From Myxococcota bacterium (lineage in GTDB: Bacteria; Myxococcota_A; UBA9160; JAFDDA01), in assembly GCA_965228475.1 (NCBI GenBank), contig OZ245817.1, positions 2,976,001 through 3,040,000 of the forward strand: a stretch of 64,000 nucleotides of DNA, given 5' to 3'. The notes below the pieces were generated by a model. That model saw only the letters and a list, made by a program, of their open reading frames with translations. It was not told the origin of the DNA and did not search any database. Of this stretch, positions 1 to 4,402 are shown one piece after another (position 1 is the first letter of the stretch; every line of letters begins with the position of its first letter). The position numbers and the translations under genes are program-made.

Positions 1-18
1 GGGTAGGCACGATCCCGC

Positions 19-89
19 CCCTGGCAACCCGCCTCCCAAAAAGCCTCAGTTCGGCGCGGCGTACTGGAGCGTCTTGCGGTTGTCGTGCT
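19..89. repeat. 71-bp direct repeat, copy 1 (displaced copy of the 3' end of the 2871..3503 gene; att-like)
   Basis: 69/71 identical to 2844..2914, with mismatches at 49 and 51. The minus strand reads HDNRKTLQYAAPN* versus HDNRKTLQYAAPE* in the intact gene. Confidence 0.95.
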
Positions 90-180
90 GGGAACCAGCG
101 ACGGTTGACCTTGCCGGCCAGTCTTTGAGATGGTGATGGGAGTGTCTAGAGGAACCACACGCTAACAAGGGAGCCTAGGG

Positions 181-756
181 ATGCTGGTCCGACTGTACCT
201 CGCTCTCGCATCAGCGCTCGCAGGCGCTACTGCGGAGGCCACCGACGTTGGCCAGATCTACGCAAAGTGCCACCAGTCCAGGAGCGGACATGTGTCGGTC
301 GTGAGCTTTCAGCCATACGCTGAGGGGCCGGGCGCCCCAACGACTACCGGCTGGACGCTGGAGGGGATGAGCAACAATATCCACGCGTGCTACGCGCCCA
401 GCTATCAAGAAGCGACGGACCTCGCCTACCAGATCTGCAGGGAACACCGACGCCAAGCCCTCGCACGGACTCAGAGGCGGGGGTTTGGAACGTACCTCGC
501 GCTTGAGTGTTCGGTCAGGGGCTCGACTACCCACGCTGGCGAGGTCGGAGGCTGCGTTGTCGCTCACTCGCGAAAAGGCTTTCACGGGGTCAACTGCTAT
601 CAAGGGCGCAGCGACTGGGCGAAACTCGCGGAAGCGGAGGCGCGCCAGGAGTGCGCTTCAGCGGCGATGGCCCAAGCCACGAAAGTAGACACGTCGTCTG
701 CCAGCAAGGACTGCGGAACCCTCGACCTCTGGTTGCTGCCCCTAGACGTTCCCTAG
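181..756 (+). CDS. Secreted Cys-rich hypothetical protein (DUF4189-like Cys spacing)
   Basis: Signal-peptide-like N-terminus (LYLALASALAGATAEA), 8 Cys, purine-rich RBS-like stretch upstream (AAGGGAG). Confidence 0.6.
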   Translation: MLVRLYLALASALAGATAEATDVGQIYAKCHQSRSGHVSVVSFQPYAEGPGAPTTTGWTLEGMSNNIHACYAPSYQEATDLAYQICREHRRQALARTQRRGFGTYLALECSVRGSTTHAGEVGGCVVAHSRKGFHGVNCYQGRSDWAKLAEAEARQECASAAMAQATKVDTSSASKDCGTLDLWLLPLDVP

Positions 757-981
757 CGCGCCAATCGCACGTCTCCGCTGTCGAGACAGCTCGAACGCAT
801 GACTTCGAGGGTTCTCATCAGACCAAGACTGTCGGCACCGGAGTCACGCCGAGGCAGAGAGAAGTTCGGCGGCGACGGTCGCCACTACTAGGAGGCTTGC
901 CAGTAGCATCGCGCTACTCTCAGGAAAGACTGTGGCGGGCTGTCCGAGGAAGCGCAGCCCTAGCTGCGAACAGGAGAGTAG

Positions 982-2157
982 GTGGCCAGAGGCAAGAACA
1001 AGGCTGCTCGCGATTCGGTACTTCGCTTTACCAATCTACGGCTGGAAAACTGGAAGAACTTCACATCAATCGATGTTGAACTCCAACGTCGCGTCTTTCT
1101 GGTCGGGCCCAACGCATCCGGAAAATCGAATCTATTCGACGCACTTCGCTTCCTCAGAGATGTCGCTTCCGTCGGCGGAGGACTCGCTAAGGCAGTCGAG
1201 CACAGAGGTGGAATCAGCTCAATACGCTCGCTCTCAGCTCGCAGGTACTCGGATATCGTGGTTGTTGCTGAGCTCTCGAGCGCACGAGGTGACGAACACT
1301 GGAAGTACGAACTGGCTCTCACCCAAGACAACCAGCGCAGGCCAAGAGTCAAGCGAGAGATCGTAACAAAGGGCCAACGGGTCTTACTCAAGCGACCTGA
1401 CTCAGACGACGACAACGACTCAGAAAGACTAACGCAGACCCACCTGGAACAGGTTCAAGTAAACAAGGCCTTCCGTGATCTCGGCTCGTTTTTTTCCTCT
1501 ATCCAATACCTCCACATCGTTCCGCAACTAGTACGGGAACCTGACAGGTCGGTTGGAAAGACGGATGACCCCTTCGGAGGGGACTTCTTGGAGCAGGTTG
1601 CACGAACACCGGCGCGCTCACAAGAAGCGCGCCTTCGTCGAATTGCAGATGCGTTGAAGGTAGCCGTTCCGCAACTGAGCAAGCTGGAACTCTGGAAGGA
1701 CGAGGCCGGCGTTCCTCACTTGCGAGGTCGATATCAGCACTGGCGCCCGCAGGGCGCGTGGCAAGGAGAGGACCAGTTCTCGGACGGGACCTTGCGCCTT
1801 ATGGGGCTTCTCTGGGCCGCGCAGGGAGGGCGAGGACCGCTGCTCCTTGAGGAGCCCGAGCTCTCTCTCCATCCGGGTGTCGTCCGCTACCTACCCCAAC
1901 TGTTCGCGCGACTCCAGCGCAAGAGCGGACGGCAGCTCTTCATCAGCAGCCATTCCCCGGAGCTCTTCCTAGACCCTGGGATTGGGCTTGACGAGGTACT
2001 CTTGTTGTCTCCCCTCGCAGAGGGAACCATCGTCAACACGGCTTCGACCGTCAGCGAGGTGAAAGACCTGCTGGAGGGCGGCGCGAGCCTTGCCGACGTA
2101 CTCATGCCGATCACGAGACCTAGGCGAGCCGATCAACTCGTACTGTTCGACCTCTAG
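982..2157 (+). CDS. ABC-type ATPase, AAA_15/AAA_21 (OLD/PARIS/RloA-like) family
   Basis: N-terminal LENWKNF strand, Walker A GPNASGKS, signature FSDGT, Walker B LLLEEPE, H-loop SSHS. Confidence 0.9.
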   Translation: MARGKNKAARDSVLRFTNLRLENWKNFTSIDVELQRRVFLVGPNASGKSNLFDALRFLRDVASVGGGLAKAVEHRGGISSIRSLSARRYSDIVVVAELSSARGDEHWKYELALTQDNQRRPRVKREIVTKGQRVLLKRPDSDDDNDSERLTQTHLEQVQVNKAFRDLGSFFSSIQYLHIVPQLVREPDRSVGKTDDPFGGDFLEQVARTPARSQEARLRRIADALKVAVPQLSKLELWKDEAGVPHLRGRYQHWRPQGAWQGEDQFSDGTLRLMGLLWAAQGGRGPLLLEEPELSLHPGVVRYLPQLFARLQRKSGRQLFISSHSPELFLDPGIGLDEVLLLSPLAEGTIVNTASTVSEVKDLLEGGASLADVLMPITRPRRADQLVLFDL

Positions 2158-2168
2158 GACCCCCGAGA

Positions 2169-2774
2169 GTGCCCAGGAAGGTCGTGAATGCAGCAGTTGA
2201 AGGTGTCGTAGACGAGGCTGTGGCAAGCCGCCTAATCGCTGATGCCGGCGGTGAGATGGGCCAAGTCTTCGGAAAGTGTGGACGACCGGCGGTAGTCGAC
2301 AAGGTCCTTTCCTACAATAGTGCAGCGAGGCACCGACCCTGGTTCATCCTAATGGACCTTGATCGCGATGAGTGCGCACCCTCTCTCCTAGCAGACTGCC
2401 TGCCACCAGAAAACCACGCACGCGGCCTGTGTTTCCGCATCGCGGTTCGAGAGGTTGAGTCATGGCTGCTCGCCGACCGAGACACGATCGCGCGCTACCT
2501 CTCAGTGAGTAGGGACTTGATACCACCTGACCCCGAGTCACTTGCGGACCCCAAGGCCACCCTGGTAGCTCTCGCGAGCAGGTCTCGGGCACGTACGGTC
2601 AAGGACGACATGGTACCAACCCCTGCGTCCGGGCGGCGAGTAGGACGGCTATACGTCGCCAGGCTGGTCGAATTCGTCCGAGACAAGTGGGACCTAACAG
2701 CAGCGTCGAAGGGCAGCCAAAGCCTTCGCCAATGTCGCCGACGTCTCCGCGAACTAGTTCTATCGCCTCCGTGA
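2169..2774 (+). CDS. DUF4276-like TOPRIM-fold protein, partner of the ATPase
   Basis: AVEG..DE, DLDRD and REVESWLLAD motifs; starts 11 bp after the ATPase stop. Confidence 0.8.
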   Translation: MPRKVVNAAVEGVVDEAVASRLIADAGGEMGQVFGKCGRPAVVDKVLSYNSAARHRPWFILMDLDRDECAPSLLADCLPPENHARGLCFRIAVREVESWLLADRDTIARYLSVSRDLIPPDPESLADPKATLVALASRSRARTVKDDMVPTPASGRRVGRLYVARLVEFVRDKWDLTAASKGSQSLRQCRRRLRELVLSPP

Positions 2775-2843
2775 AACCCGAGAGCTAGCTGCCCAGTCTC
2801 TGGTGCTTCGGCTGTGCCAGGCTCGGGGACGAGCGCAGCGAAA

Positions 2844-2914
2844 CCCTGGCAACCCGCCTCCCAAAAAGCCTCACTCCGGCGCGGCGTACTGGAGCGTCTT
2901 GCGGTTGTCGTGCT
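2844..2914. repeat. 71-bp direct repeat, copy 2 (last 44 nt of the CARDB-like gene plus 27 nt downstream)
   Basis: Matches 19..89 with 2 mismatches. Confidence 0.95.
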
Positions 2915-3503
2915 CGTTGGGCTCCGGGACGAGGTTCCCGGGGTCGATCGTCGCCGTGACCGTGTAGAAGCAGTCCGGCGGGTTCCGCCACTCCTCGCCG
3001 TCGTCCGGCAGGACGTCGAGCGTCTTCACGCGCTCTTCCGAGTGGGGCGGGAAGATCGCCTGGGGCCACTGGTAGACCGACGGCTTGATCTCGACGATCT
3101 TCGTCGCATCGCAGGTGAGGGTGATGCGGAGCTTCAGGATGCCCGGGGCGAAGGTCGAGACGCCCGCGCGGCGCGCGGTCACGCGGACCGGATCGCGCGC
3201 GTGGGCGGGCCGGGAGAGCTCGACGGAGAAGTCCGTGGGAATCACCGCGAGGCCTCCGCGACCGGGCTGCACGGTGTGCCGCTCGAGGACCCCGCCCGGG
3301 CCCGGCGCGGGCGGCGGCGGGTCCGGGTTGAAGCCCGGCCCGTCGACCTTGCGCTCGATCACGGAGGTCTTCGGCTCCGCCGTCGGCGACGCCTTCTTCT
3401 CGATCGTGCGCGAGGGCGCAACCCCCATGGAAGGCCGTTCGGCCTTCGCGGAAACGGGTGCGAAGCCGCAAGCCAGGAGGATCACGAGAGCGAAGCGACT
3501 CAT
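2871..3503 (-). CDS. Secreted protein with C-terminal CARDB-like Ig motif
   Basis: Signal peptide MSRFALVILLACGFAPVSAKA; C-terminal TATIDPGNLVPEPNEHDN; ATGA overlap with the upstream gene and GGAGG RBS. Confidence 0.7.
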   Translation of the reverse strand: MSRFALVILLACGFAPVSAKAERPSMGVAPSRTIEKKASPTAEPKTSVIERKVDGPGFNPDPPPPAPGPGGVLERHTVQPGRGGLAVIPTDFSVELSRPAHARDPVRVTARRAGVSTFAPGILKLRITLTCDATKIVEIKPSVYQWPQAIFPPHSEERVKTLDVLPDDGEEWRNPPDCFYTVTATIDPGNLVPEPNEHDNRKTLQYAAPE

Positions 3504-4402
3504 TCCTCCTCGCCTCCCACGCGCGTCGGCGGTGCGACCTTCCAGCTCTGCGAGCCCCCGGGCACCCGCACCTTCTGTCCGACCGCATCCTGCTTCTGCG
3601 GATCCGCCGGTCGGACCTTCCAGCTCTGGCTCGCAGCCGGGTTCCCCGGCGCGTCGGACGGCGCGACCTTCCAACTCTGCGCGCCGCCCGGCAGGCGAAC
3701 CTTCTGCTCGCCCGTCGACGGCTGGTAGCGCTTCCCCTGCGGGACGGCGGGGACCGTGTTCGCCGCGCCCGGCGTCGCGAGCCCCTTCGCACCGCCGAGG
3801 ATGCCGACGCTCGTCAACTGGCACGTCACCGCCGTCGAGGGGTTCGTGAGGCCCTCGTACACCTGGTGCAGGCTCGAATCGTTCGGCGCGTGGTTCGCCG
3901 CGCAGTGGGCCGAGAACGTGATCGCGTCGCCGTAGAACTCCCCGTCGGAGACGAGCGTGACCTGCGCCGTCGACTTGAAGCTCCCGTCCGGGTTCGTGAG
4001 CGCCGCGGCGCACTGGGACTCCACGTTGTCGAGATCCCACGGCTCCGCGGTGAAGGCCTTCGTCGCCGTGCCCTGACCGGGCATCGCGCCGCCGAGGACT
4101 TCCTCGTAGGTCCCACCCTGCATGCCCCAGGCATCGCTGTAGCTGTAGACGGTGAAGGACGACGGATGGAAGCTCTGCGGACAGGTGAGCTTGGCGAGGA
4201 AGGGCACCGTCTCGTTCACGTTGTGGTGGGCGAGCACGAGGCCGCTCGGCCCCTGGGTCATCGGGACGTGCCCGCCGGTGCCCCCGGTCTGGGTGACCGT
4301 GGCGCCGGGCGCCGTCTGCTGCTGATAGGCTTCCTGCTGGGCCTGGGCCGGTGTGGCGCCGAGGGCGGCGCAGGCCGCGATCGAGGCGATCCATCGAGTC
4401 AT
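3500..4402 (-). CDS. Secreted hypothetical protein with three QSWKV repeats
   Basis: Signal peptide ending AQA, AGGAGGAG RBS, host-like codon usage. Confidence 0.8.
   Translation of the reverse strand: MTRWIASIAACAALGATPAQAQQEAYQQQTAPGATVTQTGGTGGHVPMTQGPSGLVLAHHNVNETVPFLAKLTCPQSFHPSSFTVYSYSDAWGMQGGTYEEVLGGAMPGQGTATKAFTAEPWDLDNVESQCAAALTNPDGSFKSTAQVTLVSDGEFYGDAITFSAHCAANHAPNDSSLHQVYEGLTNPSTAVTCQLTSVGILGGAKGLATPGAANTVPAVPQGKRYQPSTGEQKVRLPGGAQSWKVAPSDAPGNPAASQSWKVRPADPQKQDAVGQKVRVPGGSQSWKVAPPTRVGGEEE

Follow-up and report, generated by a model that had tools for sequence, protein, structure and literature searches.

A foreign HEC-01 gene cassette between two copies of the predicted promoter region of a tmRNA gene in a Myxococcota genome

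The left edge of a 64,000-nucleotide (nt) stretch from the Myxococcota bacterium assembly GCA_965228475.1 (contig OZ245817.1, G000:C1:2976001-3040000 of one 5.0-Mb contig; hereafter the window) carries a foreign, integrase-less gene cassette that is bounded by a 71-bp repeat and lies in front of the intact gene for transfer-messenger RNA (tmRNA, ssrA). The cargo comprises an orphan gene and a two-gene HEC-01 module. We consider it moderately likely that the 71-mer is what remains of a longer duplication, at least 387 bp in size and comprising a gene end, the predicted tmRNA promoter and the tmRNA, around the HEC-01 cassette, and that the cargo formerly lay behind the tmRNA gene; the inclusion of the tmRNA in the duplication is in itself highly probable. 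The unusual point is the geometry, with the cargo placed before a working tmRNA gene, between copies of its promoter region and with a dead second tmRNA alongside. The layout appears to be a single-lineage event built from known parts.

Repeat, promoter and tmRNA remnant

The two copies of the repeat, at window positions 19-89 and 2844-2914, are identical at 69 of 71 positions, and both mismatches (49/2874 and 51/2876) fall within the last sense codon of a minus-strand gene with a CARDB-like C-terminus. The repeat consists of 41 coding nt (13.7 codons) of this gene, the TGA stop codon (2871-2873) and 27 nt downstream. A genome-wide search returned two copies of the 71-mer in the whole genome, the next-best match being 26 nt long (E 0.017). 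The gene-end duplication described in the first-pass annotation of the window was thereby confirmed, with agreement from public contigs, and the 71-mer is not a dispersed multicopy repeat. An array of 71-mers extending upstream, which the same annotation had suggested, was excluded by the two genome copies; the array that does lie upstream consists of copies of the tmRNA 3' end. The features at the repeat and the tmRNA gene are the following:

19..89, minus strand: repeat copy 1, equal to positions -100 to -30 of the tmRNA gene, with an orphaned CARDB-like gene end (APN and stop), a T-tract and a -35 box
2844..2914, minus strand: repeat copy 2, with the true end of the CARDB-like gene (APE and stop), a T-tract and a -35 box, without a -10 box behind it
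1..27, minus strand: predicted tmRNA promoter, with the -35 box at window 22-27 (TTGCCA), a 16-nt spacer and the -10 box at window 0-5 (TACCCT)
G000:C1:2975624-2975989, minus strand: intact tmRNA gene, 366 nt, tag ADDNYALAA, found by ARAGORN and by Rfam RF00023 (169.5 bits)
2808..2843, minus strand: decayed internal tmRNA piece, equal to nt 252-287 of the genome's own tmRNA (fourth pseudoknot region), co-oriented with the intact gene and joined to copy 2

The first base of the tmRNA lies 12 nt before window base 1 and 30 nt left of copy 1, and the predicted -35 box of the tmRNA gene sits inside this copy. The corresponding motif (TTG-N3/15-19/TA-N3-T, at most 80 nt upstream of the tmRNA) was present in 30 of 33 loci, the window's own and 32 from relatives, compared to 0.135% of random 80-mers; a generic sigma-70 scan did not list the predicted site. 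Followed in the direction of the tmRNA, the locus starts with the CARDB-like gene and a -35 box, continues with tmRNA nt 252-287 and the cargo in antisense, and then shows the CARDB-like gene end, the full promoter, the intact tmRNA and two islets. A longer remnant of the CARDB-like gene past window position 89 was not recovered, the alignment score being equalled by 1,063 of 2,000 random stretches.

The 36-nt remnant is identical to the genome's own tmRNA at 31 positions, compared to 16-26 of 36 for the tmRNAs of 17 relatives. Its score was reached by none of 4,995 random genomic 200-mers from which the 71-mer was excluded, and its 44 nt, microhomology included, gave a genome-wide BLAST E value of 1.3e-7. 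The Rfam scan missed the remnant and an order-level hidden Markov model found it weakly (E 0.2), which is to be expected of a region so short and variable. The last 8 nt of copy 2 (promoter positions -37 to -30) match tmRNA nt 244-251 at 7 of 8 positions, and this microhomology at the joint points to a deletion of 280 nt (-29 to +251). Since the remnant is fused to copy 2 and the predicted -35 box lies in copy 1, the duplicated unit would have been longer than 71 bp and would have included the tmRNA; we infer that it spanned at least -100 to +287 (at least 387 bp). The case shows that the duplication of a gene end at the edge of a window can be a side effect of an RNA gene next to it.

Cargo, flanking genes and the cassette of a related strain

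The interval between the repeat copies is 2,754 bp long with a GC content of 0.604, compared to 0.705 ± 0.024 for the genome, and only 48 of 10,007 genome windows of equal size are equally low. The GC content at third codon positions (GC3) is 0.62-0.74 in the cargo genes, compared to 0.94 in the CARDB-like gene and 0.89-0.97 across the four genes right of the cassette. No integrase or transposase family in Pfam, PADLOC or NCBIfam matched the three cargo proteins. Both the foreign composition and the lack of mobility genes had been noted in the first-pass annotation and were confirmed. The genome encodes four tyrosine recombinases (XerD-like, XerC-like, an integron integrase and one island-type integrase 1.9 Mb away), all at least 0.67 Mb off, the nearest at about 0.67 Mb, and no serine resolvase match was found in the genome. 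The cargo and the flanking gene are as follows:

181..756, plus strand: orphan Cys-rich gene, 191 aa, hydrophobic N-terminus, the only relative being the orthologue of a related strain
982..2157, plus strand: HEC-01A, ABC-type ATPase, 391 aa (PADLOC PDLC04180, E 9.7e-156, residues 15-388)
2169..2774, plus strand: HEC-01B, small TOPRIM/DUF4276-like protein, 201 aa (PADLOC PDLC04194, E 2.6e-61, residues 1-196)
2871..3503, minus strand: accessory secreted-type gene with a weak CARDB-like C-terminus, 210 aa (203-210 aa), host-like codon use

HEC-01A also matched Pfam AAA_21 (E 6.6e-36), and the next other PADLOC family was AriA (E 1.7e-34). The protein carries the Walker A, signature, Walker B, D-loop and H-loop motifs. 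HEC-01B starts 11 nt behind HEC-01A in the same orientation, is full length against its homologues and carries the acidic VEG and DLD motifs of the TOPRIM type. Judged by sequence and arrangement, the pair belongs to HEC-01 and is a candidate anti-phage pair. Homologues of HEC-01A were compared at 36 loci (32 from the homologue search and 4 from the order, one place being counted twice); the partner gene was present in 28, some of the loci being cut by contig ends. A tRNA gene was present in 1 of these loci and flanking direct repeats in 2, and the orphan gene and the CARDB-like gene were present in none. In other phyla, direct repeats flank the HEC-01 loci L085 5780-7870 (82 nt, 87%) and L082 3421-9950 (37 nt, 95%).

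The orphan protein, probably secreted, had no match in Pfam, PADLOC or NCBIfam, and the homologue searches returned only the orthologue of the related strain (P0010, 206 aa, 87% identical). Over the first 99 codons compared, the two genes differ by 19 synonymous and 14 non-synonymous codon changes. An Atlas match to DUF4189 scored 0.84, under the threshold of 0.9, and serves as a lead only; the fold model, with a pLDDT of 47.7, was too poor to search with.

The CARDB label is weak, the Pfam CARDB match (E 0.018) being short of the cut-off. Only seven proteins, the window's own included, matched the CARDB-like protein at E ≤ 0.001 among 1.84 billion representatives, and the gene was not found in the 40 relatives and 400 phylum genomes searched; the orthologue of the related strain is 94% identical. 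The displaced gene end is duplicated and the target gene itself is intact, as in an island at the 3' end of a protein-coding gene. The adjacent gene for a 300-aa secreted-type protein ends in three imperfect SQSWKVAP-like repeats (window 3500-3714).

The locus was recovered in several sets of public metagenome contigs (X1 to X6). The contigs of X4 and X5 are identical to the window sequence and break exactly at the repeat, a shared 38-nt piece of which is covered about twice as deeply as the cassette (50 vs 24.3 in X4 and 260 vs 129 in X5). Either may be the source sample of the genome, so these contigs check the assembly and are not independent biology. X1 and X3 represent one sample with a related strain, in which a 3,009-nt contig holds the orphan gene, HEC-01, the remnant and the repeat at both ends. 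This cassette is 88-90% identical to that of the window, with 69 differences in 566 positions of the orphan gene and 196 in 1,877 of HEC-01, compared to 92 in 1,659 on the CARDB-like side, corresponding to 10-12% divergence of the cargo vs 5.5%. At the level of contigs, the breaks with doubled depth in X4 and X5 and the same layout in the X1 strain speak against an assembly artefact of the repeat.

In X1, the repeat forms a single 51-nt contig with a depth of 6, compared to 3.1-3.3 in its flanks, and differs from copy 2 at four letters. One of these is in the last codon (APD vs APE/APN) and three are in the promoter-side 21 nt, where both window copies are identical; the three letters were placed by counting across contigs of depth about 3 from one sample and not by direct reading. 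Copies within a strain are thus closer to each other than to their counterparts in the other strain, which would be explained by recombination between the copies or by conversion during entry, and this suggests that the repeat copies are still recombining. The contigs fit two chromosomal copies as well as an empty site plus a circle, and those available for X1 did not include one from the tmRNA side.

The related strain differs at the edges of the cassette, too. In X1 and X3 the repeat stops 18 nt earlier on its CARDB side, a short CARDB-like motif stands at the loose end of the X3 contig, and one position of the remnant (L003 12841) has the tmRNA base in X1 but not in the window. The gap between HEC-01B and the remnant measures 116 letters in X1 vs 57 in the window, leaving room for the missing tmRNA tail. 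X2 holds a near-identical piece of the tmRNA and nothing of the cassette, which is no evidence either way, and X6 is fragmentary. Contig depth drops two- to threefold from left to right along L003 8000-15000, between the islets and the CARDB-like side (212, 168, 129 and 75 in X5; 32, 24 and 12 in X4), perhaps from composition bias or a mixed population; this fall is no measure of copy number, and neither amplification nor excision was judged by it.

The tmRNA neighbourhood and the origin of the cassette

Two further copies of the tmRNA 3' end lie 2.7 and 5.2 kb downstream of the intact tmRNA and bound small gene blocks without an integrase:

L003 4455-9623, to the left of the window: two islets that lack an integrase and lie behind the tmRNA gene, each ending in a copy of the tmRNA 3' end with an 11-nt-spaced arm-like repeat

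A third block beyond the two islets contains TetR-like and hydrolase-like genes. Of 41 genomes, 36 had a match, and extra copies of the tmRNA 3' end were frequent in these; different genes stand beside the tmRNA in most genomes of the order (L041-L073). Where smpB was found upstream on the same strand (20 of 34 loci, the remainder having too little DNA or no smpB), its distance to the tmRNA gene was 0.3-17 kb, and a same-genus genome matched the window only from about 11,600 rightwards; the 5' side of the tmRNA gene is therefore a variable interval, too.

Several related arrangements were observed elsewhere. A 7.3-kb block in the same genome (G000:C1:4777569-4784938, L030 7587-14938), not at the tmRNA gene and located behind a proB-like gene, lies between two pieces resembling the tmRNA 3' end. 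It has an end motif in common with an islet behind the tmRNA (0 of 300 shuffles), lacks a tyrosine recombinase, and its open reading frames, judged by eye, encode a nucleotidyltransferase-regulator pair, a ThiF/E1-like and a metallopeptidase-like protein. Islands behind the tmRNA were seen in G012 (L033 6147-10052), with three direct repeats of 60-97 nt, and in G040 (L035 12893-15110), with an exact 92-nt pair. In G024, a 53-nt tandem duplication directly before the tmRNA (L031 6993-7109) has pushed the promoter-like motif further upstream. In G003, the tmRNA was found in two overlapping parts (G003:C1:1807517-1807700 and 1378370-1378693, model positions 1-183 and 43-365), which lie on opposite strands with about 430 kb between them, reflecting a rearrangement or an assembly issue.

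In the origin that we favour, the cargo would once have sat behind the tmRNA gene, as the two neighbouring islets do. An illegitimate joint of the far end of the cargo to a point about 100 nt before the tmRNA would then have given either a tandem duplication or a circle with promoter and tmRNA, which could re-enter by homology with no need for an integrase. The redundant upstream tmRNA would subsequently have lost its -10 box and nt 1-251 at the 8-nt microhomology and decayed, and occasional recombination between the copies would keep them alike. A single crossover between the copies would drop the cassette and leave gene end and promoter whole, and such a crossover preserves the frame of the CARDB-like gene to its stop codon. 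If the homogenised repeat reflects live recombination, loss of the cassette would be harmless to both neighbours and would represent an integrase-free turnover of a defence module.

In a further-reaching version, which we regard as doubtful, the cassette captured the tmRNA promoter and gene as landing homology and would be gained, lost or amplified without an integrase, by recombination between repeats of 50-70 bp that are actively kept identical. If true, a defence module on the 5' side of ssrA would have a scarless switch, of a kind that island finders reject by design, and it might be one way in which the variable smpB-ssrA interval of the order grows.

The following results weigh against the favoured origin. 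The 11-nt-spaced arm-like motif of the downstream islets is absent from the cargo (90-2843), and the tmRNA 3' end, the expected attachment-site piece, was not detectable between the remnant and HEC-01B; a longer remnant towards the T-arm can be aligned by eye, but the similarity past 2808 was equalled in 826 of 2,000 shuffles. The former position of the cargo as an ssrA islet, reached by analogy with its neighbours, thus lacks support from the cargo itself. Similarity of the cargo ends to the islet ends was at chance level; 1 of 21 comparisons was equalled in 1 of 300 shuffles only, but 155 of 3,000 random genomic stretches scored equally, and shared ends were rejected. None of the 36 HEC-01A-homologue loci holds a tmRNA. 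The cassette layout was found at 0 of 33 relative loci (32 genomes), at least 2.9 kb of upstream sequence being held in 29 of them, and would therefore be a one-lineage event; three relatives, one with the tmRNA off the contig start and two matched by 3'-end pieces only, were left out of this comparison. Neither an empty site nor other cargo, for which the first-pass annotation had proposed to look in relatives, was found in the order's 192 other genomes, two of which matched by pieces of HEC-01A alone, nor in metagenome contigs (searched with CARDB-like peptides and a tmRNA 24-mer) or viral contigs. No circle was found in public contigs.

A true island on the 5' side of the tmRNA gene is an unlikely alternative. 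An integrase would have recombined within the tmRNA through an element attachment site (attP) with the 5' part of a tmRNA and its promoter, so that the 5' part of the host gene was displaced upstream; the integrase would later have been lost, together with the leading part of the displaced piece. The upstream, co-oriented position of the remnant and its undetectable 3' end agree with this, and 5' fragments occur in 159 of 3,919 Islander islands according to PMC4383910. The restored gene is, however, preceded by the host's own upstream gene end, so that the element must first have captured host DNA in some other way, the fragment is internal and not a 5' end, and no integrase remains.

An insertion-duplication unrelated to ssrA integrases, in which foreign DNA joined to a piece of the locus entered an insertion-tolerant interval by homology, through uptake or repair, is quite unlikely. 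It would fit a cargo without attachment-site or arm traces, the varying smpB-tmRNA distance across the order and the occurrence of HEC-01 homologues in unrelated contexts. The start of the cargo right behind a tmRNA copy is left unexplained by it, given two islets behind the tmRNA and a third at a secondary site.

The first-pass annotation had interpreted the locus as a site-specific insertion at the 3' end of the CARDB-like gene, with an attachment-like (att-like) hot spot there that is mobilised in trans or by an unrecognised capture mechanism; a recombinase acting in trans is the form considered here. The foreign integrase-less cassette, the duplicated gene end and the stacked insertions of this interpretation stand; the attachment site in the CARDB-like gene is improbable, and the tmRNA is the relevant neighbour. 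The gene end is indeed duplicated with the gene intact on one side, divergence from X1 is about twofold higher in the cargo than on the CARDB-like side, and the copies look homogenised in two strains, as a fresh target duplication would also make them. Such a site, however, leaves the tmRNA remnant and the promoter unexplained, the shortened CARDB-side repeat edge of the X1 and X3 strain speaks against it, and the rarity of the target gene among relatives and the phylum, too. Besides the distant island integrase, the available recombinases are XerD-like, XerC-like and integron enzymes, with no serine resolvase match. Reuse of the gene by several elements could be assessed in one other strain, which has the same cargo and not a different one, with a different repeat edge.

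An assembly artefact or stray integron cassettes are hardly credible. In their favour are a large integron of the genome, with about 40 attC-like repeats, and the possibility that X4 or X5 is the source sample. Against them, the contigs of both end at the repeat, where depth doubles, a different strain has the same layout, and neither the attC profile of the genome itself nor the generic RYYYAAC..GTTRRRY pattern, on either strand, matched the cargo, whose ends form no hairpin beyond those of shuffles. The chromosomal integron (G000:C1:4361900-4385012) encodes an integron integrase (TIGR02249 above cut-off) and has about 39 attC-like repeats of 140 bp; a second cluster (G000:C1:3906300-3917900) has about 11 attC-like repeats and no tyrosine recombinase nearby.

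Comparison with known systems

The ssrA islands of Dehalococcoides (McMurdie et al. 2011, PMC3146451) share with the cassette the foreign cargo at the tmRNA locus, the tandem arrangement with islets and, in some cases, the lack of an integration module. They are located downstream of ssrA between copies of its 3' end of about 20 bp, whereas the cassette lies upstream of the working gene, between promoter-region copies, and 3'-end copies occur only left of the window. The two islets there fit the Dehalococcoides pattern directly.

Imprecise excision of the lambda dgal or F-prime type yields circles that carry host DNA and return by homology as insertion-duplications. The favoured origin of the cassette would share with these the cargo that is joined to neighbouring host DNA, re-enters by homology and ends between direct repeats; phage or plasmid functions are absent from the cassette and no circle was observed.

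The 5'-fragment islands of Islander (Hudson et al. 2015, PMC4383910) likewise lie upstream of a working tRNA or tmRNA gene (tDNA), with a co-oriented piece at the far end. Here, too, an intact tDNA and a co-oriented fragment stand at opposite ends, the tmRNA 30 nt from copy 1 and the remnant at 2808-2843. Islander demands an encoded tyrosine integrase and a fragment from the 5' or 3' end and rejects internal ones; the cassette encodes no integrase, has an internal fragment (nt 252-287) and comes with a duplication of 100 nt of upstream host DNA. The cassette works as an island of the tmRNA hot spot would, but Islander-type tools would discard it for the missing integrase and the internal fragment.

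HEC-01 (Hma-embedded candidate 01) was described as a pair of an ABC ATPase and a TOPRIM protein (Payne et al., bioRxiv 10.1101/2024.01.29.577857). In that preprint, the system sits inside an Hma system, and one representative gave no protection against the phages tested; the pair of the window, in contrast, is stand-alone. In open-access literature listings, with older work on tRNA and tmRNA sites outside their scope, no description was found of a promoter-plus-tmRNA duplication around cargo or of repeat-bounded amplification of defence genes. The tmRNA gene is the best-known island target and HEC-01 a catalogued candidate; the parts are known, and their arrangement is unusual.

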